From positions 28,770,001-28,834,000 of the forward strand of contig NC_086097.1 of NCBI RefSeq assembly GCF_963921235.1: a stretch of DNA of 64,000 bases. The letters run 5' to 3'. Of this stretch, positions 7,538 to 64,000 are shown piece after piece (positions within the stretch are counted from its first letter, which is position 1; the number at the start of each line of letters is the position of its first letter). Below the pieces are notes generated by a model that was given only the letters and a program-made list of their open reading frames with translations, was not told the origin of the DNA and searched no databases. Position numbers and translations under genes: made by a program. This DNA is from Mobula hypostoma. Lineage: Eukaryota.

Positions 7538-7669
7538 ATTGGCTGTAGCCAACATGTTCTCAGGGTCAACCAGAGTGCGGAGTAGTCCCATAAGTTGGAC
7601 TGCACCGCCAAGCTCAGGATCTGGATCACAAATCATATGTTCAATGATGAGATTAATGAGGAGGATATC
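7538..7669 (-). CDS. PPP4R3A: PPP4R3A/SMEK1 coding exon (probably exon 8), 132 bp
   Basis: [50 protein letters not shown] acceptor, GTAAGT donor. Confidence 0.96.
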
Positions 7670-7999
7670 CTAAAACAAAGCACAACAATAGCTATGAGTT
7701 TCATACTTAAACCAAAATAGAAACCTGTCTAACTCTGCACTGATTAAGTGGCCACATATTTATCCCAATAATAGTGGATGAATAACCATAATTATACAAC
7801 AAACACAGCATATAGGTTTTTATATAAGAACTAGACTGAATAAAAATAGCACAAGTTCACTCATTCTTGTTTTTCTTGTCATTTCAGTTCACATACGATG
7901 ACAAATTTAGGTTATTGTACATATGTATTCTGCTTATTTGTTTGCAATGATGCTTGGAAGTGTCCAAGACCATTGGTTTACAATAAATTAATATTTTGC

Positions 8000-8075
8000 A
8001 ACACACACACACAAAATGCTGGAAAAACTCAGCAAGTCAGTCGATGTTTTGGGCCAAGACCCTTCACCAGGACAA
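8000..8075 (-). mobile_element. Short Penelope-terminal fragment ending at a degenerate hammerhead
   Basis: ACACACAAAATGCTGG...GTCGATGTTTTGGGCCAAGACCCTTCACCAGGAC, homologous to 46470-46600. Confidence 0.75.
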
Positions 8076-8977
8076 ATTCTTCAAATGCCATTTGAAACTT
8101 TATCAACATTCTATCAGTGTTGTTGCGAAACTCAAATATCAAATGATTTTTGTTGCTGAACAGTATTACAAAGATTAGCTTGTTTTCTCACATGCATGTA
8201 CATCAAAACATACAGTGAAATGCATTGTGTGTACCAAACAACCAACAAAGTCAGAGGATGTGCTGGGGGCAGCCCACAAGTATCGCCATGCTTTAGGTGG
8301 CAATACAGCACGCCCACAACTGATTAACCCAACCCATACATCTTTGGAATGTGAGGGGAATCTGGAGCATCAAGACATACAGACATGGAGAGAAAATACA
8401 AACTTCTTACAGACAATGAAGGAATTGGATCAGGATTGCTGGAGCTGTAATAGGGTCTTGCTAACCACTAAGCTACCATGCTGCCCTATTCCCGATGGAC
8501 TTCAGGATGATTTAATCATAAATAACAGAATGAAATGAAATCTCCACGACATATAACTTTGCAATTGTAGATACTAACCAGAAGGAGTAGGGCAGTTGGG
8601 CAGTCCACCATGTGTGGCTGTATAAAATCAATCATAGATAATCTGATTATCACCTCAACTAGACATCACTGTTCACCTGCAGTAACCTTTCAATCTCTTG
8701 ATTATCAGGAACTTAACTATTTTTACCCTTAGGTTCAGACTGTGCTGTCACCACCCCTTCAGGAAGAGCACACTGAAGACCCGTGAACTCCGGGAGAAAA
8801 AACAAGTGACTCAATTGCCTTAAAAAGTGACCCCCTAGCTCCAGATTCTCTCAGAGGAGGAAATATGCTCTCCATATCAACCCTGTCAAGATCACCAAAG
8901 TTCTCATATAAACCATGAGACATAGGAGCAGAATTAGGCCATTCATCCATTGAGTCTGCTCCACCATAACTGATTTA

Positions 8978-9468
8978 TTAGAACATAGAAATCCTCCAGC
9001 ACAATATGGGCCCTTCGGCCCACAATGCTGTGCTGAACATGTACTTACTTTAGAACTTACCTAAGGTTATCCATAGCCCTCTATTTTTCTAAGCTCCATG
9101 TACCATTCCAGGAGTCTCTTAAAAGACCCTATTCTATCTGCCTCCACAACCGTTACCGGCAGCCCACTCCATGCACTCACCACTCTCTGCGTAAAAAAAC
9201 TTACCTCTGACATCTCCTCTGTACCTACTTCCAAGCACCTTAAAACTGTGCCCTCTCATGTTAGCCATTTCAGCCCTGGGAAAAAGCCTCTGACTAAACA
9301 CACGATCAATGCCTCTCATCATCTTATACACCTATCAGGTCACCTCTCATCCTCCGCCGCTCCAAGGAGAAAAGGCCGAATTCACTCAACCTACTCTCAT
9401 AAGGCATGCTCCCCAATCCAGGCAACATCCTAGTAAATCTCCTCTGCACCCTTTCTATAGTTTCCACT
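8978..9468 (-). mobile_element. CR1 LINE 3' fragment (further CR1 pieces at about 7145-7410, 8570-8970, 9470-9630)
   Basis: ORF 9134..9331 YKMMRGIDRVFSQRLFPRAEMANMRGHSFK; (TTCTAT)n-type tail. Confidence 0.9.
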
Positions 9469-9644
9469 CCACTTATTATCACTCACAACTCTATTCTTCT
9501 GCTTTCTTCTTGCATATCCTTTAAAGCCCTAACTAATCAAGCACCTATCAACTGCCACTATCCCAATGACTTGGCTTCCACAGATGTCTAGGGCAATGAA
9601 TTCCATATGTTCACCACCCTCCGACCAAAGAACATTGTATCTGC

Positions 9645-10465
9645 CTTCCTGATTGATTAAGGTGGAACTGTGGACGTTGTCTACATGGATCTGAGTAAGG
9701 TATTTGACAAGGTCCCTCATGGGAAAAGTGTTCAGAAGATAAAGATGCGTGCAATCAATGATCAATTGGCTTTTTGGACTCAGAACTGACTTTGGTGGGT
9801 CAAATGTAAAGAGACAGTACACTGCTATGGGCAAGATCTTTAACAGTGTTGATGAGTAGAGGGATCTTGGAACCCAACCCTTGAAAGCAGCTGTACAGGT
9901 GATAGGGTGGTTAAGAAGGATACAGTTCTGGTTGCCCCATGTTTATAAGATGTTAAAGCATTGGAGAGGGCGCAGAAGAGGTTTACCAGGATGCTGCCTG
10001 GATTAGACAGCATGAACTATAATGAGAAGTTGGACAAACTTCGGTTGTTTTCTCTGGAGCGATGGAGACTGAGGGGAGATCTGATAGAGGTTTATAAGAT
10101 TATGAGAGGCATATAAAGAGTAGACATACAGCATCTTTTTCCTGGTGTTGGAATGCAAATAGTAGAGGGCATGCACTTAAGATGAGAGGGGGTTAAGTTC
10201 AAGGAGATGAAAGAGGCAAGTTCTTTTTTGCACAGAGAGTGGTGAGCGCCTGGAATGCACTGCTGGGGTGGTGGTGGAGGCAGATACATTAGGGCCTTTT
10301 TAAGAGACATTAAGATAGGCACATCAATGTAAGGATAATGGACAGATATGGGCATTGTATAGGCAGAACAGTTAGTTTCATTGGCCTTTTGATGACTAAT
10401 TTAATTGGTTTGGCACAACGTTGTGGGCCAAAGCACTCAATCCTATGCTGTAATATTTTATGTTC
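9645..10465 (+). mobile_element. CR1 LINE RT/3' fragment with internal deletions
   Basis: VDVVYMDLSKVFDKVPH, LERAQKRFTRMLPGL, RLRGDLIEVYKIMRGI motifs. Confidence 0.9.
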
Positions 10466-11039
10466 TAACTCCACAGATAAACTATTCTATACTTGAAGCT
10501 ATACTCTTTTTTTTGCCTCAAGCAATTTATTCAAAGAAAGGAGAGCAAATAATTGGAACATCCAAATATAGAGTAGTATATCTTATATAACTAGTGTTCA
10601 ATACTGTAATTAAACCAAAACGAATATCAGTTTACTCTGGAGTACAAAAATGGAGTACACGATAAAATTAACAAATTCAATGGAGCACAGAGACCTTGGT
10701 GTGCAGGCACAAGTCATGAAAAATGTGACAGCTTAATCAGAAGAATGGAATGAAAAAAAGAATAAGATTTTCTATCCAGAACTGTACAGTTCATAACTAA
10801 GATAATTCCAACTGTGTACAAGTTTTTAAAACAGAGAGTAAGGGTTACAATTACAAAAGGCACATTCAACAATTCTGGGTGTAATATTGCCTTTTTCAGA
10901 AAATGTGGAGCATTTAATCAAGTAGATCTACAAGGGAAATGGTCATTTGAAAAGGTTTTGAGGAGGCATAGAAGGGAAACTAGTGATTGGGACAGGGCTG
11001 TAGAGTAGGAAGCCGCATATATAGAGATGCACCAAATAA

Positions 11040-11605
11040 CTGTCGAGCACTTATTCTACATCTGCCACAAAAGGCAGAGTTTCCCACTGGCCACCCATTT
11101 TAATTCTACTTTCAATTCTCATTCCAACTACTGGCATCATGAGGCCAATCACAGGTTAAAGGAGAAACACCTCATCTGAGTAGCTTCCAACTTGAAGGAA
11201 TGAACATTGATTTCTCTAACTTATGGTAATTTTCCCCCATCCCCTTCTCTCTCTTTCCATTCCAACTCCACTATTACCATTTCTCTTCTCACCATGGTTC
11301 ACTGTCCTCTCCTATGAGATTCCTTCTTCCTTAGCCTTTTACCTTTTTCACCCATCTCCTCCCAGCTTCTCAGTTCATCCCCCACCTTCCTTCACACCTG
11401 GTCTCACCTTTCACCTCTCAGCTTCTACTCCCTCCACTCCTGCCACCTTATTATTCTAGCTTCTGCTACCTTTCTTTCCAGTCCTCATGAAGGGTCCCGG
11501 CCCAAACTGTCAACTGTTTATCCCCCTCCACAGATGCTGCCTGACCTGCTAAGTTCCTCTAGCATTTTGTGCATGCTGCTCTGGAGTTCTAGCATCTGCA
11601 GCACC
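11040..11605 (+). mobile_element. Penelope-like element 3' fragment with degenerate hammerhead (about 11479-11516)
   Basis: LATHFNSTFNSHS..RLKEKHL..GMNIDFSN remnants; CCTCATGAAGGGTCCCGGCCCAAACTGTC; AGCATCTGCAG end. Confidence 0.8.
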
Positions 11606-12212
11606 CCATATTTAGAATGTGTGTTAATCTTGTGTCTCTATCATAAGCTTTGGTAAATTTTGTTTCAATTGCTTCTGACAGTGAATTGAGTTTAATAAGA
11701 TTTAGAATCAGAGCTTCCAAAAAGACCAATTCTAAATTATATGATACCCAACAAAGGTCTGCATCCACATCAGCCTTCTCCTGCATTTCTTCATCTAATA
11801 CTATCAACATTTCTGCCACATGCTTTCCAAACTTCTCCATAAACACATACAGGTCGACCATCTCTGATCCGACTACCTGTAATCCGGTTCCTTCGATAAT
11901 CTGCACTGATATCAAATTTTCCGCGCAACTGTAATTTCAAATTTTCCAGGCCACTGTACCAATCTGCTGCGCATTGTTTTGATTGCGCTAGATCTGATCA
12001 TATGTTGGCGCGCTCTTGTAAGCACAGACAGGCGGTTCCTGCTTGTTTTCCTGCATTTATTAATATCATTTGCGTGAGGCGCACCCACCTGTCTCACCTG
12101 CCAGCGGCGGGGGAGCTGGTGCGTGCTGGGTTGGTCCGCGTTCTCGCCCGCCTGCCGGCAGTTGTGCACTGCCCTTCGGTGTCGCCCGGCTGGCGCTCCG
12201 TTCCCTTCTGCC

Positions 12213-12340
12213 TATGACCTCAGATCAGACATGGTCACCCGCTGAATTTAAGCATTTAACTAAGCAGAGGAAAAGAAACTAACGAGGATTTTCTCAGTAA
12301 CTGCGAGTGAAGAGGGAAGAGCCCAGCGCTGAATCCCTGG
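12213..12340 (+). rRNA. 28S rRNA 5'-end fragment (pseudogenic), preceded by GC-rich ITS2-like sequence at about 12070-12212
   Basis: GACCTCAGATCAGAC..ACCCGCTGAATTTAAGCAT..GAGGAAAAGAAACTAAC..CTCAGTAACTGCGAGTGAAGAGGGAAGAGCCCAGCGCTGAATCCC is the conserved eukaryotic LSU 5' end; carries several CpG-type decays. Confidence 0.92.
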
Positions 12341-12349
12341 GCGGGGGTT

Positions 12350-12603
12350 AACTACAAGTCTATGTCCTATCGCTTAGCTGATGCTGGTAGAGGGTGCACT
12401 TTATTTTTTGCCGGTTGGGAGGGGGGAATTGTTGCTCGCTGCCGCTTACGCGCGGGAGGGAAGAGGGCGGGTGGGGGAACTTAGGGGTTCTAACATTCTT
12501 TGGGGCACTCCTCTGTTTTCGTAGATGGCTGCGAAGAAAAAGCATTTCAGGATGTATATTGTATACACTTCTCTGACATTAAATGAACCTTTGAATCCTT
12601 TGA
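12350..12603 (+). repeat. Retroposon 3' tail shared with about 27870-28090 and 31710-31950
   Basis: TTGGGGCACT..CTGTTTT..GAAGAA..ATTTCAGG.TGTATATTGTATAC..TCTCTGA.ATTAAAT + (CCTTTGAA)n-like end recurs three times in the window. Confidence 0.75.
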
Positions 12604-14852
12604 TATTTTAAAGGTACGATCAGGCAGTTAGGTATTGCTTAATGTGATCCTTCTGTAATTCGGCATTTTTACTAATCCGGCACTCTTCAGGTCCCAATGG
12701 TGCCAGATTATAGAAGGTCAACCTGTATAACCTTTTCACATAAACTATTCCCTGTGGTAAGTACTGCACTATTTAGTAAGATTTGAGAAGCAGTGGCAGT
12801 TTTTGAAAAGGTAATTAAATTAACATGCATTTTTTCAAGATGTGACATTTTGTTCTTCTATCCCAGCATATTATCCAAGGAGAAGCCAACAAATAGGTGG
12901 CATCATGTAGGGCATATCGCTCCAGTCGTTCAATTGTTAGCCAAAGCATTTCCTTTATGGAGTTAGATGACTGGCTATTATGCCAAGTCCAATACAAATA
13001 TTGCCACTGAGCCAACTACTTAAGAGGGCTATTCCAAGTATGTATTGTTCAAGCATCAAGACGGTTTTCCCTGTTTAATTTTATGATCAACTGCAACTAT
13101 ATAAAAGTGTATTTATTCGCTCAATTACAAAAAACTAAAGAATAGATATGACTGATATTCATATTTCAGAGTAGTTTCTTTTTCCATTCAAGATCATATC
13201 TGTTGAGATATACTCGGCATTATCTCCCTAGACCTTGCTGCACTGCAGAAGCACTACAGAACTGACTAAAGCACCAATAATTTTCTTGCATTGATTCAAC
13301 TCCCCTAAATTACCAATGTGTAATGACAACAATGTGCGCTTGAATGGTTGGGGAGGGGGAAAGGTGGAAGAAAAATGAGACATTTCCCCTTCCTAAATAA
13401 AACAAAATATACTGATGACTCCTTACACTAAACCATTTAACAGATTTACATTCATTTAGCAATATCCTGTGAATTTATGCTATGCCACATATCATCCTTA
13501 ATATGTAAACATTCAACCACACAATTAATGATCTTTCTCATGCAATATTTTCAGAATGATACATTAGTTCCACAAAGAACATCTTTTAGTGTAACATCTT
13601 TTAGCGTGAGATTGGTGCAAATCTATTGAGAGAACACAAAATTTTCTTCTATGAGAAATGTTTTATTCAGAAATTCATGAATGTTAAATTGATACTTTTT
13701 GGAGTTAAAAGTTATCACTCAGAATGCCGAGTTGGTTCACAAGTGGACAACGTTATTGGCATTTTACAGAAATAAATATTTGAGGGCTGTAGATGGCTGC
13801 ATAGGTTGTAGACCCAACAAGCTCCATCACGGGAACAACTCTCCTGTCCATCGAGGACATCTCCAAGAAGTGGTGCCTCAATAAGGTGGCAATGATCACC
13901 AGCATCTATCACCAAGTACCTTCCCCATCTGGGACAATGCCCTTTTCTCATTACTACCAGCGGAAAGGATGTAGTGTTGCAAGAAAAAGTTTGCAATTAT
14001 TTGACTTTCCGTATTAATTACTCATAAAATGTGGTCTGATCGTCATCTAAGTCACAATAATCTGCCTAAGCTATTAACACACAAAGAATTATACTTCTCG
14101 TCAATACAGAGCACACCATTTAAACAATCACAGTCTAGGTTCAAGAAAGTATGTGAACCTCTCGGGTAATGCCTTCTACAAAAACTATTTGCAGTCAGGT
14201 GGTTCCAGTCAATGAAATGAGATTGAAGGTGTGGGTGGCAGAGGTGCCCTGTCCTATAAAAGACACGAAGTCAGGTTACCGACAGAACCTGCTCTTCTCA
14301 GGAAAGATCTGTTTATGTGCATCATGCCTTAATTAATACAACTTTCAGAGGACCTTAGAAGAATTGTAGAGATACATGAAGCTGGAAAAGGCTACAAAAG
14401 CATTTCTAAAGACCTGAGCGTTCAGCAGTCCACAGTAAGAGAAATTGTCTACAAATGGAGAAAATTCAGTACTGTTACTATTCGCCCTAGGAGTGGGCAT
14501 CCTGCAAAGGTCACACGAAAAGCACAACGTGCAGTGCTGAAGGAGGTGAAAAGGAACCCAAGGTAACAGCAAAAAGATCTGCAGGAATCTCTAGAACTTA
14601 CTAAAGTCTCTGTTCATGTGTCCACTACAAGAAAAACACTAAACATGAATGGTGCTCATGGAAGGACACCACAGAGTAAACCACTGCTGCTCTTCACAAA
14701 AAAACAATGCTGCAAGTTTGCAAAAGACCACATGGATGATCCATAGCGCTTCTGGATGATGAGACAAAAGTTGAACTTTTTGGCAGAAATGCACACAATT
14801 ATGTTTGGAGGAAGAAGAGCACTGCACACCAACATCAAAACCTCACCTCAGC

Positions 14853-16009
14853 AAGGCATTTGATAAGGCACCCCATGCAAGGCTTATTGAGAAAGTTTAA
14901 GGAGGCATGGGATCCAAGGGGACCTTGCTTTGTGGATCCAGAATTGGCATGCCCAGAGAAGGCAAAGAGTGGTTGTAGATAGGTCATATTCTGCATGGAG
15001 GTTGGTGACCAGTGCTGTGCCTCAGGGATCTGTTCTGGGACCCCTTCTCTTTGTGATTTTTATGAATGACCTGGATGAGGAAGTGGAGGGATGGGTTAGT
15101 AAATTTGCTGATGACACAAAGGTTGGGGGTGTCGTGGGTAGTGTGGAGGGCTGTCAGAGGTTACAGCGGGACATCGATAGGATGCAAAACTGGGCTGAGA
15201 AGTGGCAGATGGAGTTCAACCCAGATAAGTGTGAAGTGGTTCATTTTGGTAGGTCAAATATGATGGCAGAATATAGTATTAATGGTAAGACTCTTGGCAG
15301 TGTGGAGGATCAGAGGGATCTTGGGGTCCAAGTCCATAGGACACTCAAAGCTGCTGTGCAGGTTGACACTGTAGTTAAGAAGGCATACGGTGCATTGGCC
15401 TTCATCAATCTTGGGATTGAGTTCAAGAGTTGAGAAGTAATGTTACAGCTTTATAGGACCCTGGTCAGACCCCACTTGGAGAACTGTGCTCAGTTCTGGT
15501 CACCTCACTACAGGAATGATGTGGAAACTATAGAAACGTTGCAGAGGAGATTTACAAGAATGTTGCCTGGATTGGGAACCTATGAGAATAGGTTGACTGA
15601 ACTTGGCCTTTTCTCCTTGGAGTGAAGAAGGATGAGAGGTGACCTGATAGAGGTGTATAAGATAATGAGAGGCAATGATTGTATGGATAGTCAGAGGCTT
15701 TTTCCCAGGGCTGAAATGGCTAACATGAGAGGGCACAGTTTTAAGATGTTTGGTAGTAGGTACAGAGGAGATGTCAGGGGCAAGTTTTTTTTTTAAAACG
15801 CAGAGGGTGGTCAGTGCGTGGAATGGGCTGCTGGCGACAGTGATGGAGATGGATACAATAGGGTCTTTTAAGAGACCCCTGGATAGGTACATGGAGCTTA
15901 GAAAAGTAGAGGGCTCTGGGTAACCCTGGGTAATTTCTAAGTACATATTCGGCACAGAATTGTGTGCAGAAGGGCCTGTATTGTGCTGTAGGTTTTCTAT
16001 GTTTCTATG
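14853..16009 (+). mobile_element. 5'-truncated CR1 LINE inside Tc1
   Basis: ORF 14930..15433 with VPQGSVLGPLLF and KFADDTK; TTCTATGTTTCTATG tail; CAGC duplicated at 14849-52 and 16010-13. Confidence 0.95.
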
Positions 16010-16223
16010 CAGCTGTGAAGCATGTGGAAGGAGCATCATGGTTTGGGGTTGCTTTGCGGCCTAAGGGTCTGGACAGCTTGCAATCATTGAGGGAACAATG
16101 AATTCAAAATTGTATCTAGACATTTTACAGGTGACTGTCAGGGAAGCAGTCCGTCACCTGGAGCTTAATAGAAGTTGGATGATGCAACAAAATGAACTGA
16201 AACAAGAGTAAATTAACAACAGC

Positions 16224-16356
16224 AAACAAGACAGAATCTGCAGATGCTGGAAATCCAAGCAACACACACAAAATGCTGGAGGAACTTAGTAGGCCAGGCA
16301 GCATCTACGGCAGAAAAAAGTACAGTTGACGTTTCGGACCGAGACCCTTCTGACCG
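16224..16356 (-). mobile_element. Short Penelope-terminal fragment inside Tc1, ending within the hammerhead
   Basis: GAATCTGCAGATGCTGGAAAT..GTTGACGTTTCGGACCGAGACCCTTC then break. Confidence 0.8.
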
Positions 16357-18679
16357 AAACAGTTTTGTATGGAGGAGTGGTCTAAAATTTTTCATCGCTG
16401 TTGACAAGTCTGATAAGCAGCTACAGGAAACATTTGGTTTCCTGTAGAGGTTACTGCTGCTAAAGGAAGTTTTACCAGTTATTAAATACAAGGGTTCACA
16501 GTTTTTCCAGCCTAGACTGTGGATGATTAAATAATGTTCAATAAAGATGTGAAAAGTGCAATTGTTTGTGTGTTATTAGTTAGGCAGATTGTGTTTGTCT
16601 ATTATTGTGACTTAGATGAAGATCAGACCACATTTTATGCAGAAAATTAATGCAGAAAACCAGAAAATTGCAAAGGGTTCACAAACTTTCTTGCAACTGT
16701 ATATACAGGGGCCCAAACAGCAATATTCAACAATTCTGACCATCAGATTTCTGAACAGTCTATGCTCACTACGCCATTTTTTTGCACAATTTATTTTTGT
16801 AATGTACAATAATTTTGTCTTTGCACTGTACTGCCATTGCAAAATAAATTTCACATCATACAAGTCAGTGATGACAAATCTTATAGTTTTCCTTTCTCAG
16901 AAATATCAGTAATTTTACAAAAAAAACCCAGAAATAAACTGATTATACAGTTCCAAACAAAATAAATTTGAATGGCTTAAGTTCAGAGCCCTCAACAAGC
17001 CTTTACATATTTTACTGACCCTAAATGTTACCTCAGTATATTACACCACTCAAATTGGCTCTCAAAAAACCTGGGATTAAAATCTGTCATGTTACAGTGA
17101 ATAAGAATGCTTGTAATGTGGTTGCTAGAGGTATTAATCCAGCCACTTGGATGAATCACCCAATCATAGTAACAGGACTCTAAATTTAGAGAATTAAATA
17201 GTGAAACGCTAGCAGCAATAATGGTGATCTTGAAATGAACAGGTTGCAATAAATTATAACACAGCAACAGTACAGACTTCTAACCGTCCGTTGAAACAGT
17301 ACACTCAGCTAGACCACAGTGCTAAGTCTAAACCTAAAAATAAAACTGGAAGAAACAGCTAGCACTGAACTAGGGACAGGCTGCATACACAAACCAGCTG
17401 GCCCCACAAGTCCTCCTCTAAAGCAAATGGAGATTGATATGCATATTGGGAGAACTGTTCTACATTAGAAAAGCAATTGACTGAGGAAGCACTTAAGAGT
17501 CTCAGCCAACAATCTGTTCTCTACTGTTAGCCTAGGTTGGTTTTGCCCAACTGGTTGATTATACCCCCAGAGTAACTGCACTCTTGTGGTAAGCAACATG
17601 AAGGAGCGAGGAGGAAACTCCGTAGCATTAACTTCAGACTCAATGGCATCTCATGTCTTCAGGTGAAGCCGGAGTAAAGAAACCACCTATTTACCATCCA
17701 CTGCCCTTCCCTCAGCTGCTGTATTAGCACACCTTCATGCTGAACTCCATCTGGAGGAAGTACTGAGTAACAAAAAGAAAGAAAGCACTCTAGCTGAGGA
17801 CCAAATCTGCAACATTGGCGAGGGAAGCAATATGAAGGAAACTTTACTCCAACTTCATCTCAGTCTATTGCAGATGTATCTATACACGTTGGTACTTATA
17901 AGACTGACTACTACAGAGACGAAGTCCCATCTTCATAAATTCTACCACAAATGGCAATGATAGAGGCTGATACAAAAATGACATTTAAGAGACAGCGAGA
18001 TAGGGACATGGATGTAAGAAAAATTAGGGTTATGGGCTGTGTAGGAGAGAACTGTGATCAAGGAGTAGGTTTATATTGTGGGCCAAACTATGCTGTATTG
18101 TTCTATGCTTTATGTGTTCAAATATTTAAGGATATGGTTATGTCACCGTCTTCAAGTTCCCCTGAACATCATGTGCCATCCTGCTACATCAGTAATGTTT
18201 ATACCACATATGTAAATTAAAGCACGTTTGAAACAGCAGAAATTTATTGCTTTCAGCTCAGAAGTGCAAGACATACTACTGAACAACTTAACAGGTAGTG
18301 TTCATGGACTTTTCAGAAATTACAAACATCCCCTGCCTTAACAAGCACAAGAACAGAGAAAATTTACATTATTTACATTCAAAGAATAGAAACAGTACCA
18401 CTCAGAAATACTTGATAATTATCCTCTGCAAGGACAGGAACGGTAATCCTAAATCTCTAACTTGTTCCTATATGTTTAATTTGTGCCTTTATTTCAACTG
18501 CCAATTGAATAGATACCTAGGTATCAACACGGTTTCTACTTCTTCACTCATAATTTCACTTATGCACACTTCAATCTCAATTCTATGGATATAAAAATTG
18601 TTTTCTTTTGAACAATTCAGGGAGCATCTCTCCCTTTATTCTTTGTTGTTTGGGTACATTTTCCATTTAGTGTCCTACA

Positions 18680-18960
18680 GTACAGATTGGGCACATAGGC
18701 CAATCAAGCACCCATCTACACTAATCCCATATGATATTTTTATTCTCCCACATTCCTATCAACTTTCCTCAGATTCCACCACTCACCAACACACCTGGGG
18801 AAAACTGCAGTGGCCAATAAGCACACTAGTTGTATACCGTTGGGAGATAGATGAAAATTAGAGCACCCAGGGAAATGTACATTGTCATAGGATGAAGGTG
18901 CAAATTCTACACAGACCATTGACGCCAGGATCAAATATGGGTCAATGGAACTCTAAGGCA
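18680..18960 (-). mobile_element. Decayed tRNA-derived SINE (V-SINE/DANA-like); related piece at about 8200-8490
   Basis: GAGCACCCAGGGAAA..CAAATTCTACACAGAC..CCAGGATCAAA pattern of vertebrate SINE cores; family name not verifiable. Confidence 0.45.
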
Positions 18961-19110
18961 GCATCTATGGAGGAAAATAAACATTGACCTTGCAGGCCGA
19001 AACCCTTCATCAGGACTGATGCTCGCAATGTTGACTGCTCATTTCCCTCTAAAGATGCTGCCTGACTGCTGATTTCCTCCAGCATTGAGTTTGTTGTTCA
19101 AGATTTCCAC
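18957..19110. mobile_element. Small inverted Penelope-terminal pair joined at a degenerate hammerhead
   Basis: GGCAGCATCT..CCGAAACCCTTCATCAGGACT | ..TTGACTG..AGATGCTGCCTGACTGCTG. Confidence 0.7.
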
Positions 19111-19791
19111 CAGAATACTGGTCCCATGAGTGACTGGAACTGCCAGTGACTTTAAACAGATTAGGAGGAACTTATTCTCTTCTAAGGTTACAGTTATTTG
19201 GAAGTTTCCATCCAGAGCAGTGTCAAAAGGAAGTAATAAGTATATTTAATGCTACAAAATATTTCTGGAGTAGAGTGCAGTTAAGGGCAAAAGACAATGA
19301 TTTAAGCAGGGAGCGTGCTTGGTGGACTTCAATTTTCAATGCCAAACCCTACTTCCCATTCACTAACTGCTCGCATACCTTTGCAGATTATTTGCACTGT
19401 TAGAAAACTTAATATAATTTCATTTGGTTCCTTCGTCTGACATCTGATGGAAGAAAAAAAAAATGCCAGGACACAGGAGGAATTTTCCACTTCACTCTGC
19501 AGTTTTTTTTGTAATGGGAATTCCAGAGGAGAGGATAGACCTTTGATTAACGTCTCCTTTGAAAGACAATGCTGCTAATCCGCTGTTCTGGATTATGTGC
19601 ACAATTCTCATAAGTAGTATTGTAGCCACATTCTTTAATAATAAATCACTTGATACTTTCAATGCATTGATATCTCAGTCTAAAATAGGCAGTAAATTTG
19701 TAATAATCCATCTAATCCGTGTAATGCAACAAAGACCATCCCAGTGGAGTTCAAACTTTTTTTTTTGCAATCGGAGTTTCCAAATACTCAC

Positions 19792-19908: not shown

Positions 19909-22556
19909 CTGCAAATTAATATTTGCAAAATTATTAAGGTACACAGTTACCAGACAACAAGGAAGTTTGGAAAAGAAACAATACTTTGACCAAAGTACAA
20001 TTATTAGAGCCTTTACCACCGCTTGTGCAAATTAAGTAGTGCAATATAGTAGAGTGTGATAAAATAATTATATGCCTGGCAATTAGTCCAGATAGCAAAT
20101 CTAGTTTCTTTATTACAACTTCAGAACAACTTCATCTTATTTCTTTAGAGGAATTCTTCCAGTCAATTTCTGGAAGAAACACTGCCACACTTATATTCTC
20201 TCCTTCTCTGGTAACATACCTCAATGTTCAAAGTAATTTTTTTAAAAATCAAAGTACATATGTGTCACCAGATACAACTCTGAGATCCATCTTTTGTTGG
20301 CATTTACAGTAAATACAAAGAAACATTACAGAATCAAATATCACACAGAACAAGACAAACAACAAATGTGTAAACACAAAAAAGAAAAAAAAAAGCAACA
20401 AATATTGAGGACAGAAGATGAAGAGTCTTGAAAGTGGGCTCATAGGCTGTGAGAGCAGTTCAGTGTTGGTGAGGGTGAAGTTGAGTGAAACTATCCCCTT
20501 TGGTTCAAGAGCCTGATGGTTAAGGGGTAATAACTGTACCTGAACCTGGTGGCTTGGGTCCAGAGGTCCCTGTATCTCTTTCCCGATAGCAGCATCAAGA
20601 AGAAAGAATGGCTTGGATGACAGGGTCCTTGTTGATGGATGCTGCTTTCCTGTGACAATGCTCCATGTAGGGAGGGAGTACTTTACCGATGATGGACTGG
20701 ACTGTATGCACTACTTCTTGTAGACTTTTCCGTTCAAGAGCAATAATGTTTCATACGAAGCCTATGATGGTGCAAGTATATTTTTCATTGCACCTGTGTA
20801 TACATGTATTTCTGCCTCCGACAATAAACTTGACTTTGACTTCACATTTCAACCACCCTTGCTATAACTGCTGGATACTACCCAACCAGCAAACTGCTTT
20901 TTCCATAAGCACCCTTCTGGAAAGCAGAAGAGGGCTATTAAAACAAGAACTTTGCACCATCTTAAGCTTCTTCCCTCAGGGATTTAATCATGTTATTCCA
21001 CCCCCCCACCCCCACCACCACCTATTACCTCAGTGACTGCACTGTACACACTTTAAACCAATTTTTATAATATTGTTTTCATTGCAAGTACATGCTGGTA
21101 TTTACATATTTTTGTATATTTATTCCATATCCATACTTTTAACTTTATTTTATAATTCTTTATAATTGTTGAATGTTATTTTTGCTGCATGTTGCATCAA
21201 CACAACACAGCAAATTCCTAGTATGTGTAAATGTATATGGAGAATTAAGTTTATACTTGATTCCTGACATTTCATAACCCATCCTTAGCCAGCACTTCTC
21301 CTGGAACATGGAAAACAATATAATTTGTACTCCAGATACAATTTCACCAGGCCACTACTTCCACATCACTTCCTCAGGCTTGGAAGATTCAAAGGCAGCT
21401 GGTATCATTCCAAGAGTCTAAAAATTTCTAATAATAGAGGGCATTCACTTAAGGTGAGAAGGGAAAAGTTCAAAGGAGATGTGTGGAACAATTAAAAAAA
21501 AACAAGAGTGTTAGGTACCTGGAATGTCCTGGGACAGTGGAGGCAGATATGACAGAGGCTCATTGATAAGTACATGAACATGCAGGTAATGTGGGATATT
21601 GACCACATGCAGCAAAAGGAATTAGGTGTTATTAGCTTGATTAGTTTGGCACAACGGGCCACATGGGCCAAAGGACTTGTTCTTTAACTGTACTGTTTTC
21701 TGTTTTTTAAGCATGGTGGAATAAGAGGAAATGTCTAGATGCAGTGTACTCCAGAAAACACAGTACATCATTAAAGACCCCTCACATCCTCTTCGTGAAC
21801 TGTTTGTTCTTCTGCCATCAGGCAAATGTTACAGCAGCATCAAAACTAAAACTACAAGGCTACTAAACAGCTTCCTCCCATAGGCAGTCAGACTGCTAAA
21901 TAGCTGCTCTACCTGACTCTGCTTTGGACACTTTTGACTTGCACTGGATACTAATAACTGATTTTAACTGACATGTGGCCATTGTGCTTTACTATTTATT
22001 GTTATGTTTATTATTTAGTGTTGCATTTGTTATGTTATGATTGCACTGCCCCTGAGAAATGCTGTCTCATTCTGCCCTGCAGAGCTGATGTACGGTTAGA
22101 ATGACAATAAAGTTTTTTGAACTTGAATCTTGGATTCCAAAAGTCACTTCATGAAAGCTTGTTGCATAGAAGAGTGGACAGGGTTGAGAATAATGTATTG
22201 TGATCCTGTAATCGTCTGAACCCTTAGTGCCTAGGTGGCACATGGGGCCTCTTTTCTTCGGTTTCTGTAGCGGTAAGGATTTTACAGGGTAGGGCTGCTA
22301 GCCCTACGCCCAACCCCCATTCTGGAGGACCAGGTGCTGTATTCATCTGGCCCTTCACCTGGAGTGATCCTGTAATTCCTCCTTCAAATGTGTGTGGGTC
22401 AAGTGTGAGCAGAAGCGGGTTTCCCTTTATCTACCAACTTATCCACAGTCATCGTCTGATTCCATTAGAAATCTAGTCTGGTAAGACACCAAAAGGCTAC
22501 TGTTGGCTGTGGAAATGTAACCCATAAAATTCATGCATTTTAATAATAAAACTCAC

Positions 22557-23425: not shown

Positions 23426-24899
23426 TGTCTTTTCACTAAAATGGACACCTTTTGTTCCAATTGTGTTCTTTCTTGTAAAACTTAAGTTTTAAGAATGCTA
23501 TTTATATGATGCTATGTGTCTGTGATAGTGATTCCAGTTTTTCAATGCACTTGTGCATATGACAATAAACTCATACTTTGATTTCATTCCTTGCAGAAGA
23601 ATTTAATTGAAGCAGCAATTCATGGTTTTATGCAGTACAGATATTGGCACAGATGGATTATAAGACAATCTTTCAGTACTTGTATTGGAGAGATTAAAAG
23701 ATGACTTTAAGCACGTACATCCAGCTTCATAAATGTAGTGCATACAGCCATAAGATAAACTACCACAAATGTTCAAATTAAATATTTAAAAAAATTAAAC
23801 TGTTATTCAAAACTGTAACCTTTTTTGTTTTATTGAAGCACTGCTGTAGGCAACTTTTGCCAAAGTCTTACCAATGAGCTGCATCACATTAGGCACTGAA
23901 AAATGGATGCCTGCTGACACAGTGCTGAGTACATGTGGTTGTATGATAGATCTTTCCTGCCTTTTCATGTGCCAGAGAGTGGCTGGTGGAACAGTAAGAC
24001 ATGAGAATTTTGCTTACTTCTGGGACATTTGGGGACTGTACGTATTTGAGTGGGAATTACCAGTACTGGTGCATCATAGTGCAATTCCCATTTCGGGCAG
24101 CCAGAGAGTAAATAAACTAGTTCTGGATACATGTATGTACAGAACTAGATGTTTGTTCCAGGAAATCAGATGCATGTGAATTTAATTTTCTTGGTTTGTA
24201 GATGATACTACTTTTCATAGATTGTATACCTGTATATACAAACGCCATTAACTATGATATTTCGGGATCTGAGGAAGATTCCCTCTCTTAACACCCAGAA
24301 GGTGGAATTTGGAATGCACTGCCTGAATTGGTGGTGAAGACGTTTGGCTTCAACAAATCTTAAGTATGCAGAAGAAAACTCAATTTCCAAATACAGAAGT
24401 ACAGAATGTATGGATCAAGCACTGGTAAGTAAGATCAGTACAGCTGGATTCAAAATCAAGAATAGATTTATTATCATTGATATATGTCGTGAATTTTTTG
24501 TTTTCAGACAGTACAGTGCAATCCATAAAAAATTACAAGTTAGAATGAACTATATTGTAATAATAATTAAGTAGTGCAAAAAGTGAGAAAAATAGTGAGG
24601 TAATATTTATGGACTTTTCAGAGATCTGATGGCAGAGGGGAAGAGCCTGTCCTTAAAATGCTGAGTGAGTGTCTTCAGGCTTCTATACCTCCTCCCTGAT
24701 GTAGCAATGAGAAGAAGGCATATCCTGGATTGTGGGGAGTCCCTAATTGAGGCATCACCTCAAAGATGGGTACTTGATGTTTGGTGTCTGCACTGTAACC
24801 AAAGGAACAGGAATTCTGCAGATGCTGGAAATTCAAGCAACACACATCAAAGTTGCTGGTGAACGCAGCAGGCCAGGCAGCATCTCCAGGAAGAGGTAC

Positions 24900-24935
24900 A
24901 GTCGACGTTTCAGGCCGAGACCCTTCGTCAGGACT
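24900..24935 (-). ncRNA. Minimal type I hammerhead ribozyme motif (PLE-associated)
   Basis: Minus: AGTC-CTGACGA-AGGGTCTCGGCCT-GAAA-CG-TC-GACT; stem I AGUC/GACU, intact core, GUC cleavage triplet, palindromic ACGU in place of helix III. Confidence 0.8.
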
Positions 24936-26022
24936 AACTAAAGGAAGAGTGAGTAAGAGACTTGAAAGTTGGAGGGGGAGGGGGAGATCCAAAATGATAG
25001 GAGAAGACAGGAGGGGGAGGGATGGAGCCAAGAGCTGGACAAGTGATTGGCAAAAGGGATACGAGAGGATCATGGGACAGGAGGTCCGGGAAGAAAGACA
25101 AGGGAGAGGGGGAACCCAGAGGATGGGCAAGGGGTAGAGTCAGAGGGACAGAGGGAGAAAAAGGAGAGTGAGAGAAAGAATGTGTGTATAAAAATAAATA
25201 ACAGATGGGGTACGAGGGGGAGGTGGGGCATTAGCGGAAGTTAGAGAAGTCGATGTTCATGCCATCAGGTTGGAGGCTACCCAGACGGAATATAAGGTGT
25301 TGTTCCTCCAACCTGAGTGTGGCTTCATCTTTACAGTAGAGGAGGCCGTGGATAGACATGTCAGAATGGGAATGGGATGTGGAATTAAAATGTGTGGCCA
25401 CTGGGAGATCATACTTTCTCTGGCGGACAGAGCGTAGGTGTTCAGCAAAGCGGTCTCCCAGTCTGCGTCGGGTCTCACCAATATATAAAAGGCCACTTCG
25501 GGAGCACCGGACGCAGTATATCACCCCAGCCGACTCACAGGTGAAGTGAAGCAGGATCTCCCAGTGGCCACATATTTTAATTCCACATCCCATTCCCATT
25601 CTGACATGTCTATCCACGGCCTCCTCTACTGTAAAGATGAAGCCACACTCAGGTTGGAGGAACAACACCTTATATTCCGTCTGGTAGCCTCCAACCTGAT
25701 GGCATGAACATCGATTTCTCTAACTTCCGCTAATGCCCCACCTCCCCCTCGTACCCCATCTGTTATTTATTCTTATACACACATTCTTTCTCTCACTCTC
25801 CTTTTTCTCCCTCTGTCCCTCTGAATATACCCCTTGCCCATCCTCTGGGTTCCCCCCTCCCCTTGTCTTTCTTCCCGGACCTCCTGTCCCATGATCCTCT
25901 CGTATCCCTTTTGCCAATCATCTGTCCAGCTCTTGGCTCCATCCCTCCCCCTCCTGTCTTCTCCTATCATTTTGGATCTCCCCCTCCAACTTTCAAATCT
26001 CTTACTCACTCTTCCTTCAGTT

Positions 26023-26058
26023 AGTCCTGACGAAGGGTCTCGGCCTGAAACGTCGACT
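26023..26058 (+). ncRNA. Minimal type I hammerhead ribozyme motif (antisense to host gene)
   Basis: AGTC-CTGACGA-AGGGTCTCGGCCT-GAAA-CG-TC-GACT; predicted cut after 26054. Confidence 0.8.
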
Positions 26059-26288
26059 GTACCTCTTCCTAGAGATGCTGCCTGGCCTGCTGCGTTCACC
26101 AGCAACTTTGATGTGTGTTGCTGTAACCAAAGGTACTGTTTCTGTATGATTCTCTATCGACAACTCCATGACCTAATAATATTTTAGGCTTGGGAGATGC
26201 CAGCCCAAAATGCAGATATGAGGGCATGCTCAACCCCTGTGGATATCCCAAGTGAGTCTTACATACTTTTGATCATATTTGTACTTAC

Positions 26289-27269: not shown

Positions 27270-28092
27270 GAAGGAATTAAAGCTATGGTTGGGGAGACTC
27301 CTTCGAGCTCATCTGTAGAAGCAGCTCTGATGTCTCTCTTTTTCCTTTTCAAGATGGATGGTGCTCTGTTGAAGACCCTGACCTAGAGCTACATTCAAAC
27401 CTCCGATTTTTGATATCCCAGGTAAGCAGCCTAGAAGATGAGTCCACCTCTGGGGTTCCGAGGCTTTGCGGTCCTGGGGATGAGCCGATTCTCTGCCGGT
27501 GCTGCTGAATGAAACATTGCGGGTGAAAATGGAAAACTGGGAGCTCTGTACTCAGCAAATCCCACATTCTCTCTCTTTCTCTCATTGGTCAAAAAGAGTA
27601 TGTTGCCGATTCTCGAGTTGGAGAACTTTGGGGGGGGGGGGGCGGTGGGAAGTCATGCAGCGAAGTTTAATACCATAAATCAGTAGGTTGTTTGTCTTTG
27701 TGGGTCTCCCCTCTCACTGTGAAATGGGGGCACCTCTCTGGTCCCTTTATTAGGGAGAGAGAGAGAGAGAGCGCCTGTGGTATGTTGAATTGCTGGGTGA
27801 ACAATTAGTTTTTGTTATGCTGCAGATCACATCTTTCTGGGATCTTTGCTTGGTGCGTGGAGGGTGCTGATGCTTTTCTTTGTTGATGTAAGTGGGGGAG
27901 GAGGAGAGTCAGTGCTTTGCTGCTGCTTGTGCATGATGAACGAGTAAGGGGATGCCTTTGGGGTTCTAACATTTGTACTGTCATTCAACCTTTGGGGCAC
28001 TTTTCTGTTCTCGTCGATTTCTACGAAGAACAAGAATTTCAGGTTATATATTATTTACATTTTCTAATATTAAATGGAACCATTGAACTATT
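27270..28092 (+). repeat. Non-autonomous retroposon-like repeat with G-run, (GA)n tract and the shared 3' tail
   Basis: Its 3' about 220 bp is homologous to 12350-12603 and 31710-31950; no coding capacity seen; 5' boundary approximate. Confidence 0.55.
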
Positions 28093-28147
28093 TAGTTTAG
28101 AAATGCATGAACTTATGTAAGTCTAAGGCAAAGGTTTCTGCATATCA

Positions 28148-31029: not shown

Positions 31030-33382
31030 TCAAAACTTCACTGAAATGCATCTTTCCCGCGCCCCCCCCCCCACCAAACTTCTGCTGGTAGCTTATTTCA
31101 CACCAACTCATGTTCCATTAAATACCTCACTTTTCATACTAAGCTTATGACCCAACCTGAAGGGAAAAAGTCTACATGTACTTACTTTATCTGTACCCCT
31201 TATAATGTTGTATAGTTCTAGAAGATCAACCTATCTCTACAACTCAGGTCCTCAAGCACTGCAAACTTATTAATCAGCCCATAAACAGTATTGATCAAAG
31301 ACCTCCAATCAAACAAAAGCACCCCTGTGCCACCACCTTCTCTCTATGGCCAAATCAATTTGAATCTAATCTCTTCGGTTACTTACTGAAATAGTATCCA
31401 CTGATCTTGAACATTTTTTTAAAAATGTTAAAAATATAGCAGGGAACAACTAACTTTGACAGCACGTGCAATGTTGCACAGATGAGCTGTAACTTTCCCT
31501 TCAAGTACTGAACTATGTGCAAAAATTACGAAAATCAACGGCAGAAGATTCTTGATAAGGAAGTAAACACCTAAAAAGCCACGAGCCAGAGGAAAAACAT
31601 GCTTTTATAGAAATATTACTGCATTATGAGATTTTGCAGACACAATGTTCTTCACTATTTCATCAGTTGATTAAGAATAGTAGATCAGGACTCTTGAATT
31701 AATAGGATCGTTACTGCTTGCTTAGTGGGTGGAGGGTACTGATGCGATTTTTTGTTGAAGTAGGGAAAGGGGAAGGTTGTTGCTTTGCTGCTGCTTGTGC
31801 TGGGGACGGGTGGGGGGGGGCTTTAGGATTCTAAAGTTTTTACTGTCACTCATCCTTTGGGGCCCTCTTCTATTTTTATGGATGTCTGTGAAGCACAAGA
31901 ATTTCAGGTTGTATATTGTATACATTCTCTGATATTAAATTGAACGATATCACCACCAATTATCTCAAGAAATCTATGCATTAGCTGTTTTGTAAAGCCT
32001 CAGCAGCCTTGACACTATGGAAAATTAATATTTTTCTTGATTTCATAATTCAAATATATTATTGAAAGGGAATCTACAAGCTAAGCAACTACACATATTG
32101 TTGTTTACGAAAGAGACACATTCCTGTTAAGTCTCTTCAACACTTTCATTGTCAAAAGTTGAATAAGACCAGGCTTAACCCTGTTTTCTTTTGTAAATGC
32201 ATACAGCACCCAATCAAAACAAAAGTTAAACTGATCTGTCATTACTCCGAAAGAATTTCTTTTCAGGATGTCTTAAAGCTCTTAATAGTCAGGGAGTGTT
32301 CTCTGAAGTCAGAATGATAGACAACCAACTTTAGTGGTACTAATTATGGTTTTGGGATGCATGCTGGTCAAGGAATAAGAGCATCAGAATTGGGAACAGC
32401 ATCTCTCTTCAAGTCTGCATATTCACATATCAAAATACTGGTTCCATTTTGCTGAACTATTCACGTAAATTTCTGAATACAAAGAGAACTAAGGTTCATT
32501 TATTTTGAATAAACTATATAATGGAGCCACCACAGCTATCTAGGGTAGAGATTTCCAAATATTTGCCAAATAATTCACTTCTTCAGTCCAAAATGGCCTC
32601 CCTTATACTGAGACTATCAGCAGGTTTAACAGTTTAACAATTATAATACTAAAATACCCAAGAATAACATGTTCAAATAGTGCACCAGTGGTTAAATATA
32701 ATATCTAACAAGTTTGGTTTTAAGAACCACTTAATGGGGGGAACAAAACATATTTTTTCAACTAAATACTGGGATCAATTATATTAAGTTTACTTTCAGC
32801 ATAAATGAAGCCAGATGCCAGAATATTTCTCAGTTTAGATATCAGCTGGATACGTACACTCCAAAGGCAATGTTGTAAATTTGGATAATTTTGCATCATT
32901 TATGCATAATATAGTTCTCAAATTCTGGTCATTGTTACCATAAAACTTTATACATTTTACACAGTAATGTGAGGCTTAAGATGAGAAGTTGGCTGGAAAA
33001 AGCAAGGTTAATAAAAGGCAAGTACATGAATTATACATTCTAACCATGAAAGGTGTACATTTTAAATTTTTACAGAAAGCAATTAAATTTTGTAAAATGG
33101 TGATAAAACTGGTAATTCTAGATGACATGACTTTGGATCCATTGCGGTGTCTTTTTAAAATTGGTTATGGGAAGTTCTCAAGGAACTGGAGTACTAGCAA
33201 TGCTGTCAGATAAGATTCTGTACAAATATTCAAGTTTTCCTCTCCTCAGGTGAGCACAACATATCACCTTTGTTTAGCAGTCAAAGTTCCATGTTCCAGA
33301 TATTAGTGTTTCTCTGTTCAGCTATCACCAATCCTCAAAAACTAAGGATGTTCTTTAGGCAAAAGATGTAATACTGTAATAT

Positions 33383-46681: not shown

Positions 46682-48724
46682 CAAGTTTCCCCCGCTATCC
46701 GAAGGTAGAGCGTTCCTATGAAACAGTTCGTAAGCCGGAATGTTGTAAAGTGAATAAGCAATTACCATTTATTAATATGGGAAAAATTTTTGAGTGTCCC
46801 CAGACCCAAAAAATAACCTACAAAATCATGCCAAATAACACACAAAATCTAAAATAACAGTAACATATAGTAAAAGCAGGAATGATATGATAAATACACA
46901 GCCTATAAAAGTTAGAAATACTTTTCTGCAAATTGCAGCACTGTCTAGCGCAGCAAAAATCTCACAGCAGCAGCACTCTCAGTGGAAGCGCTCTCGGCAG
47001 AAACATTCTCTCCAGTAACCTTTAAGCTATGAAGCTGCCAAATCATACCAAATAACACGTAAAAATACACAGCCTATATAAAGTAGAAATAACATATTGT
47101 AGCGATGTGCTACACACAGCGCTAGAATAACCACACGGAGTCGGTGAGTTGGAGTTGCGATGAAAGAGGTTTATTCAAACTTCGCGGCCCGCTTTAAAGC
47201 CTTCCCGTTCCCGCCCTTTTTGCTGCCCGCCGTTTCGTGAGCCGGTTCGTGGGTGTCAGAAAGTGGGTCGCCACAATATGTACAGTTTCACTTACCGGAA
47301 TCGGGAAGACACAGTTTCCTCCAAACGCCATTTCTCATCAAGACTGTTAGCCTATCGAGAGCATCTCCAATGTTGGCAATTTTATATTGTATTCTATCCC
47401 GATCTCTCACAAAGACGCTTCGGAGTTGTCCTCACGTTTTGCGTATAGTAAGCCTTAACTGTGGCTATTAGGCCTTGGTCGCATGGCTGCAGCAACGATG
47501 TCGTATTTGGCGGTAAGAACGCAACACGAATGTTACCTCCATATTCGGTAATGCCAGGCGGATGAGCAGCACAATTATTGACAATCACAAGGCACCTATT
47601 AGCGAGATTATTTTCTCTACAGTATTTTTCAACAAAAGGACTAACGTATCCACTCATGTACTCAGAAAAAAGCACTTGGGTATTCCGACCACTTGGATGT
47701 GAACAGAACACAATGGGAAGTGTTTTCTTATCAACGTCTTTAAGTACCCTCGGATTTTCTGAATGATACACTAGTAGAGGCTTAAGGACAGCATCACCAT
47801 TGGCGTTAATAATAGGCATTAGGGTAAACCTGTCCTTCGATGCCTTGTGTCCCTTAGCCTGCTTTTCTTCTATCGAAATAAATGTCTTGCTTGGCAATTT
47901 TTTCCAATAAATTGCAGTTTCGTCACAGTTAAACACTTGCTTATACAAATAACCACCTTCTATAATTATTTTCTTCAGTTCTGCTGGGAGCTTTTCGGCA
48001 GCTTCAGTATCAGCCGAAGCACTCTCTCCAGTAAATGTTAAACTATGAAGCTGAACCCACCTAAGAAACCGATCAAACCACCCATGACTACCCTTAAGTT
48101 CCACTTTCGCAACACTTTCATCACCATCCTCCAGTGCTTTCTGTTTCAGCTTATTAAAAAGACTGACTGATTTCTCCTTAAGTATAAGAAAACTTAACGG
48201 AACACCACGCTTTGTACACCCATCAATCCACTCCAGCAAAAGACTTTCCACGTTATCCATTATTGGATGCCGACTAAGAGAGACCACTTTGCTACGAGCA
48301 GAACCAACAGTAACATCGGCAGCTTTCAAAATTCTTTCTCTCTGCATATAAATAGTGCGAATGGTGGACGCAGGCAAGTTCAATGCACGGACAATGTCCT
48401 TACTTCGTTCACCACGATCGAAACGCTTAAATTATGTCTAGTTTTATGCTAAGTGTAACACCCTTACGAGCTCTTTTAGGTTTTTCTGATACCTTAAAAC
48501 TCATCTTGCTAACGAATGCACAAAATAAATCGAGATAAAGCACGTGTTTAAGCAATGCCGGCTAGAATGCAGTTCTGGGGGAGGAGCTTGGCTGTTCGGG
48601 GCGCGCTCTGCCTTTTTTCATAACAGTGAAAACACCTTCTGTTAGCGAAAACAGGTAACTAATGTAGGTCTTTCGTAACAGCGAGGTGTCGTAAAGCAGA
48701 CGTTTGGAAAATGGGGGCCACCTG
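46682..48724 (-). mobile_element. Tigger/pogo DNA transposon (TIGD1-like CENP-B HTH + DDE transposase, inactivated)
   Basis: ORF 47394..48383 (KGSHGWFDRF, VFNCDETAIYWKKLP, FLPPNTTSLLQPCDQG); likely start ATG 48504 with a frameshift; second catalytic Asp appears as Asn (VNNCAAH); imperfect TIRs; TA at 46680-81 and 48725-26. Confidence 0.93.
47098..47275 (-). mobile_element. Solo LTR (Gypsy-like), 178 bp
   Basis: TGTAGCGA...TCGCCACA termini (7/8 inverted), ATAT TSD at 47094-97 and 47276-79, minus-strand TTTAAA then AATAAA; CpG-rich. Confidence 0.8.
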
Positions 48725-63497: not shown

Positions 63498-64000
63498 AAA
63501 CAACAGGAATTCTGCAGATGCTGGAAATTCAAGAACACACATCAAAGTTGCTGGTGAATGCAGCAGGCCAAGCAGCATCTCTCGGAAGAGGTGCAGTCGA
63601 CGTTTCAGGCCGAGACCCTTCGTCAGGACTAACTGAAGGAAGAGTGAGTAAGGGATTTGAAAGTTGGAGGGGGAGGGGGAGATCCAAAATGATAGAAGAC
63701 AGGAGGGGGAGGGATAGAGCCAAGAGCTGGACAGGTGATAGGCAAAAGGGATACGAGAGGATCATGGGACAGGAAGTCCGGGAAGAAAGACGGGGGGGGT
63801 GGGGGGGACCCAGAGGATGGGCAAGGGGTATATTCAGAGGGACAGAAGGAGAAAAAAGACAGTGAGAGAAAGAATGTGTGTATAAAAATAAGTAACAGAT
63901 GGGGTACAAGGGGGAGGTGGGGCATTAGCGGAAGTTAGAGAAGTCAATGTTCATGCCATCAGGTTGGAGGCTACCCAGACGGAATATAAGGTGTTGTTCC
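63498..64000 (-). mobile_element. Young Penelope-like element (terminal region plus end of GIY-YIG ORF), runs off the window
   Basis: Nearly identical to 24806-25307; encodes EQHLIFRLGSLQPDGMNIDFSNFR*. Confidence 0.93.
63595..63630 (-). ncRNA. Minimal type I hammerhead ribozyme motif
   Basis: Minus: AGTC-CTGACGA-AGGGTCTCGGCCT-GAAA-CG-TC-GACT, identical to 24900-24935. Confidence 0.8.

Follow-up and report, generated by a model that had tools for sequence, protein, structure and literature searches.

A TA-flanked transposon family that probably carries a 28S rDNA 5' end and adjoining spacer, with one copy in a PP4R3 intron

The element at 11850..12725 of the window (the whole 64-kb stretch of DNA analysed here) is best explained as a single member of a TA-flanked, non-coding transposon family that exists in many copies, a reading that we consider very probable. 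In this reading, the interior carries the first ~125 nt of 28S, preceded by a GC-rich segment of about 145 nt that is likely the end of ITS2; the retroposon tail that follows is likely a later insertion. The window copy was compared with contigs from public sequencing runs, one each from organisms A, B, C, and E (4 of 24 runs), aligned to 11610-12960 at 80% likeness. A is the same organism as that of the window (0.82-0.88 of words), B is a close relative (0.47-0.48), and C and E are more distant. The contig results come from the 32 pieces listed of 38,361 and the 15 joints listed of 71, and the contigs counted may include alleles.

Termini, interior, and superfamily of the element

TA-flanked inverted termini had been proposed at 11850..12725 in the initial annotation, and an inverted-repeat comparison within the window confirmed them: the arms at 11847-11869 and 12706-12728 are complementary at 19 of 23 positions, and a TA borders both ends. 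The two copies of the target-site duplication (11848..11849 on the left and 12726..12727 on the right, neither assigned a strand) are read from the sequence and from the apparent empty site of organism C, where a contig fits from the right TA at 12726. The window holds 338,120 TA..TA pairs spaced 300-1500 nt, and 18 of 22 complementary positions are reached by 20 of them; by self-comparison of the window, the 19 other than this element fall within an inverted duplication at 24.8-26.1 kb (16 pairs) or within further dispersed repeats (3 pairs). The inverted duplication belongs to a young repeat, with copies at 24836-25416 and 25549-26122 that are 96% alike over 581 nt and lie about 130 nt apart, and a third copy at 63502-64000. 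Its reading frame at 25231-25719 may be a Penelope-type endonuclease remnant.

Inward of the left TA lies the left arm (11850..11912, plus strand), a terminal inverted repeat (TIR) of about 22-28 nt with its subterminal region; the majority letter at 11860 is carried by 48-101 contigs per run. The right arm with its TIR occupies 12636..12725 (plus strand; 65-108 contigs per run at 12670). Both arms recur in a short form. Among the joints listed, those that connect 11901 to 12636, separated by about 12 letters, are found in 14, 5, 9, and 0 contigs in the four runs, and they represent a deletion derivative of about 150 bp, a true MITE, built from both arms. The two arms therefore belong to one family. 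This MITE is far more abundant than the long form, its depth lying several-fold above that of the interior.

The interior of the long form is non-coding (11913..12069, plus strand; 34-58 contigs per run at 11997), has a 25-nt tandem duplication at 11909-11958, and is itself CpG-rich, with an observed/expected (o/e) ratio of 1.05. Two frames of it were tested against Pfam and gave no relevant match. On the right side, beyond the cargo and the retroposon tail, the long-form interior resumes at 12606..12635 (plus strand), with 20-40 contigs per run at 12617 and a depth there of the same order as at 11911.

The ends of the element look pogo-type. Since a search for a transposase domain in the element found none, the preference for pogo over some other superfamily that duplicates TA comes from the appearance of these ends and from a Tigger-type transposase remnant elsewhere in the window (47394-48431, minus strand; CENP-B_N, HTH_Tnp_Tc5, and DDE_1 domains), the end of which, near 48725, has only its first five terminal bases in common with the TIR of the element and otherwise differs. 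On these sequence features, the element is probably a non-autonomous, TA-duplicating transposon of pogo/Tigger type. Non-autonomous pogo/Tigger elements, as described in sections of PMC7386202, have a TA target duplication and TIRs of 40 bp or less. The present element agrees in its TA duplication, which is common to Tc1/mariner, and in its TIR of 22-28 nt; unlike them, it is assigned from its ends, with no transposase.

The 28S piece and the GC-rich stretch

Two further proposals, that the first ~125 nt of 28S rRNA are present and that about 140 bp of GC/CpG-rich sequence run flush into them, stand up well. A local E-value scan against Rfam returned a match to LSU_rRNA_eukarya (RF02543; 77.9 bits, E 2.6e-18) that begins at model position 1, corresponding to 12215, and the stretch 12215..12340 (plus strand) equals the fish-type rDNA locus L005 at 108 of 126 positions, without gaps. 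This part of the family cargo is thus a decayed 5' end of the 28S rRNA gene, about nt 1-126. A scan of the whole window at the Rfam gathering thresholds gave 0 matches, and weak matches to mir-454 and NPPA-AS1 in the local scan were taken as chance. The reverse complement of the 28S start (12220-12236) resembles the left TIR (11856-11872) over 17 nt at 88%, forming an internal end-like site; this resemblance is likely due to chance.

The GC-rich cargo upstream of 28S (12070..12214, plus strand, the start position being approximate) comprises 145 nt with a GC content of 0.70 and a CpG o/e of 0.84, as compared with 0.40 and 0.28 for the window. By its position and composition, it is very probably the 3' end of ITS2: it adjoins position 1 of the 28S model without a gap, GC content steps from 0.44 to 0.70 at about 12070, and summed contig depth falls 3-12-fold at the same place. 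The same observations weigh against a reading in which only 28S was captured and the GC-rich stretch is the CpG-rich interior of the transposon itself, or DNA from some other source. The high CpG ratio of the interior would suit that reading, as would the failure of the stretch to fold better than shuffled sequence (z -0.28) or to resemble fish-type ITS2 ends above shuffles: compared with 12060-12212, the upstream parts of the fish-type junction loci L001, L003, and L005 scored 27, 27, and 35, where the shuffle maxima were 34, 32, and 35. However, if the captured piece stopped precisely where mature 28S begins, this would point to RNA, of which there is no other sign, and we consider the 28S-only reading unlikely. 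Moreover, a mismatch with fish-type spacer upstream of 28S is to be expected, because ITS2 is a fast-evolving spacer.

The junction loci came from a search with a 28S-junction motif, which yielded 5 loci in metagenome contigs and 1 in prokaryote genomes; three are fish-type rDNA junctions, and L004 and L006 were set aside as chance matches. The bases that these loci share next to 28S are no evidence, since the search motif selected them. A motif from the GC-rich part found 4 loci in viral contigs, none extending beyond 19-31 nt. As a separate observation, L001:604-1045 and L003:604-1045, which are host DNA from two metagenome assemblies, contain about 100 nt of spacer end and about 185 nt of a fish-type 28S 5' end in an AT-rich, non-rDNA context. 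The two fragments are 97.7% alike, with about 195 additional nt upstream in L001, and a TIR was looked for in them and not found. They may represent a further case, in a different fish, of an ITS2/28S junction fragment that has become dispersed.

Dispersed copies, the nested retroposon, and the host intron

The initial annotation had allowed that all junctions of the composite might be single-copy, and had offered as one of two alternatives a DNA transposon family that captured and amplified rDNA. In the contigs, two of the junctions are multicopy. The boundary between interior and GC-rich stretch (12070) is bridged by 10 of the 32 listed pieces, with all four runs represented, and the boundary between GC-rich stretch and 28S (12215) by 9 of the 32, from three runs, in each case with at least 31 letters on either side; 3 of the 32 span from the interior into 28S. 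The bridging pieces diverge from the window copy by 8.5-17.6% and have about single-copy depth, so they represent dispersed, decayed copies rather than the rDNA array. These findings bear out the alternative of capture and amplification by a DNA transposon. The structure of the family was chained from overlapping pieces, the whole element being longer than the reach of any listed piece.

The size of the family can be gauged from the number of contigs that carry the majority letter at a given position, which in the four runs is 37, 35, 31, and 41 at 12176, and 55, 49, 34, and 66 at 12140. Summed depth divided by flank depth is 32-77 at 12176 and 67-799 at 12140; because summed depth is no copy number, we speak of dozens of copies, possibly a few hundred. 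Six 28S positions at which the majority of paralogues differs from the window were compared with real rDNA (L005), and the majority letter is that of rDNA at all six (6/6). In one piece from organism E, the left end of the element is joined to the interior and preceded by 108 letters of unlike flank. The 16 listed pieces that span 12081 fall into 11 with 11-17 gap letters and 5 with 0-5, which suggests two length variants; the placement of the gap is read from a loose end at 12081.

It is highly improbable in view of these copies that the composite arose as a one-off, by insertion of a template-switched retrocopy of pre-rRNA plus tail into an ordinary MITE at this site only. Short MITEs without an interior do exist, and the junction between 28S and tail is single-locus, but the joins of the GC-rich stretch to the interior and to 28S are both multicopy, even in organisms C and E, where this site appears to be empty.

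The tail itself is a different matter from the rDNA. The nested part (12372..12605, plus strand) is the 3' part of a very abundant retroposon, as seen from two other copies in the window and from contig depth. The initial annotation was right that this tail occurs twice more in the window, since 12372-~12600 aligns with 27844-28099 and 31716-31945, but its length is about 230 nt rather than about 250 bp, and its join to 28S is not direct: a 31-nt piece (12341..12371, plus strand) lies at the 5' junction of the nested retroposon. By BLAST, the last ~95 nt of the tail are 80.8% and 83.3% identical to the other two copies, relative to which it is without about 16 nt near 12494. Summed depth reaches about 1e6 at 12530-12575, and hundreds of contigs end their likeness at 12584-12603 with unlike 3' flanks, as expected of a retroposon. 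The tail is also weakly like another retroposon 3' end near 20190-20340 (4 of 2000 shuffles scored as well), and a search of the 64-kb window for a tRNA head found none. Alignment of the three window copies (12372, 27844, and 31716) begins near a common point, and the tail may therefore be a unit of ~230 nt with a conserved 5' boundary instead of the product of random truncation.

In contrast to the rDNA junctions, the 28S|tail boundary at 12341 is bridged by 0 of the 32 listed pieces. Depth at 12354 is 0 in A, 51 in B, 0 in C, and 0 in E, the value in B being that of one contig in an organism with a flank depth of 50.5, whereas at 12291, within the 28S piece, 25-27 contigs are found per run. 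Two paralogues, from organisms B and E, stop fitting exactly at 12340, with 79 and 31 unlike letters beyond, and no paralogous contig covers 12341-12371, a piece that the depth at 12354 marks as single-locus. This piece is weakly like DNA upstream of the 27844 copy (24 of 2000 shuffles as good), with no likeness to the other copy, and is either filler or diverged retroposon sequence. Thus, the tail is likely a later nested insertion into this one copy, at a single locus. A target-site duplication of the nested retroposon was sought, and only a 7-mer at 12330 and 12592 was found; it was discarded, as paralogues continue to match up to 12340. With no clean target duplication on either side of the tail, this copy has probably lost part of the family sequence.

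These observations leave little room for the view that rDNA and tail were fused as a unit inside the MITE, as first described, or for the other of the two initial alternatives, a chimera of pre-rRNA and retroposon in the manner of an rRNA-headed SINE. An rRNA-headed SINE, in which a pre-rRNA fragment and its LINE-type tail would move together by retrotransposition and one copy would have entered a MITE, is suggested by the distance of 31 nt between the 28S 5' end and a retroposon tail of like orientation, and SINEs with 28S heads are known (SINE28 and MeloSINE). Yet the junction that would hold such a unit together is the one at a single locus, while the rDNA is joined instead to transposon interior in many copies, and we regard this origin as extremely improbable. 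A composite of ends, rDNA, and tail that formed elsewhere and moved whole, as a low-copy subfamily, is also very unlikely: over the 28S|tail junction, organism B has one contig at single-locus depth, and C and E have none. Mobilisation of the whole would have been possible with both TIRs intact, and additional copies of the junction could be hidden, because contigs matching human DNA were dropped and organism A, that of the window itself, is uncovered at 12354.

The element lies in an intron of about 12 kb (7670..19791, minus strand) of a PP4R3 (SMEK-type) gene, as judged from matches to consecutive exons and from GT and AG splice ends. The flanking exons correspond to positions 226-268 (ending at ~19792) and 269-315 (starting at 7669) of Pfam PF04802. 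Because the element lies between minus-strand PP4R3 exons, the rDNA piece would be antisense in the PP4R3 pre-mRNA, as the initial annotation held. On the gene structure predicted here, this orientation is a geometric fact, of a kind expected by chance for half of intronic copies.

Organisms A and B carry the element at this site, and the flanks of B differ at 2 of 284 and 2 of 263 letters. From organism C, one contig fits only from 12726, the right TA, with 171 letters before it, and its depth of 7.8 equals that of the left flank. From organism E, a contig of 679 letters stops at 11846; it is the only listed record over the ends of the stretch, and the right flank has the same depth, 14.4. 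Read from contig coordinates among the pieces listed, C and E thus appear to have empty sites, and since their orthologous site is without the element, their cargo-bearing contigs are paralogues. Organism E also appears to be without about 55 nt of the right flank, 12809-12863 (depth 0.94 in the bin 12806-12851). Flank divergence is 2.5-5% in C and E, as against 8.5-17.6% between paralogues and the window copy. Divergence of the paralogues is thus higher than the insertion of a young copy after the split would produce by itself. The gap may be explained by CpG decay, C>T and G>A accounting for 89 of the 145 variable places in organism A, together with a bias of long contigs towards diverged copies. 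Alternatives are a late relocation of an old copy, or loss of the element in C and E.

Proposed origin and comparison with known systems

How might such a family have arisen? An ancestral pogo/Tigger-type element would have lost its transposase; for class II elements, transposition in trans requires only the ends. Break repair or a replication template switch, by analogy with models in PMC8277862, would have copied about 270 nt or more of rDNA across the ITS2/28S boundary into it. Transposase acting in trans may then have recognised the intact ends, so that the cargo had reached between dozens and a few hundred sites by the time the four organisms diverged; here the multiple copies are observed and the mechanism is proposed. 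One copy would have come to rest at this TA in the PP4R3 intron in A and B, with C and E left empty, as contig coordinates suggest. A 5'-truncated retroposon would have inserted just past 28S nt ~126 before the split of A and B, probably with loss of family sequence, and the copy would since have decayed, largely by the C>T and G>A changes seen.

Most likely, the rDNA piece has no function and is carried as a passenger. Alternatively, the ITS2/28S junction could have helped the subfamily to spread or persist, for example by targeting to the nucleolus, by targeting to chromatin that is open like that of rDNA, or by exchanging sequence with rDNA repeatedly. The dozens to hundreds of copies in introns and between genes would then give rise, from scattered sites, to sense and antisense RNA over the 28S 5' processing site; we consider this very improbable.

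A vertebrate family with rRNA-coding DNA at dozens or more sites is a clean example of transposon dispersal of 45S rDNA fragments, which cytogenetic work has often invoked. In practical terms, cargo copies could inflate estimates of rDNA copy number and be mis-annotated as rRNA, and they may be co-amplified by the 28S 5' end primers used in ITS2 work. A literature search, with Repbase and Dfam outside its scope, found no description of such an rDNA-carrying TIR family.

The published systems are compared here as they appear in sections of the papers cited. In animal Pack-TIRs, as surveyed by Tan et al. 2021 (PMC8277862), the TIRs enclose 100-5000 nt of captured host DNA, and multicopy cases, which spread by transposition and tend to have GC-rich cargo, are reported as rare (four cases, 1.4%). 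The present element is likewise a TIR DNA transposon that encloses captured host DNA in many copies: the TIRs of one element flank non-TE host sequence (126 nt of 28S and 145 nt of GC-rich DNA), 31-41 contigs per run are found at 12176, paralogues occur where the orthologous site is empty, and one left end has an unlike flank. It differs in scale, with dozens or more copies per genome in four organisms as against three copies in an example from that survey. The words 'rRNA' and 'rDNA' occur 0 times in the main text of PMC8277862 (supplements apart), and the survey likely excludes rDNA cargo through its filter for a unique parent (90% or more, unique top match), since rDNA is multicopy by nature. 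The element described here is a high-copy, Pack-TIR-like element with rDNA cargo and an ordinary nested retroposon, uncommon but mechanistically ordinary, by a mechanism that is known.

Other dispersed repeats with 28S sequence are the retroposons SINE28 (PMC4994717) and MeloSINE (PMC4844689; see also PMC5786205), the heads of which, as the sections drawn on describe them, come from the 3' part of 28S. Here, in contrast, it is the 5' end of 28S, from model position 1, that was moved, it was moved between TIRs, and the junction of head and tail is found at a single locus. The closest precedent, in the parts of the literature used here, is Pokey with its mPok derivatives in Daphnia (piggyBac superfamily, PMC3849761), the only DNA transposon in Table 2 of a 2024 review (PMC10946416) with rDNA inside. 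Pokey carries IGS and a 48-bp piece of ITS2, and, like the present family, is a DNA transposon with rDNA-derived pieces and MITE deletion derivatives. Unlike this element, which has a TA target and a copy in a PP4R3 intron, Pokey uses TTAA sites and inserts into 28S genes. Its IGS and ITS2 repeats evolve in concert with rDNA, whereas the cargo described here is one decaying stretch that includes rRNA-coding sequence.
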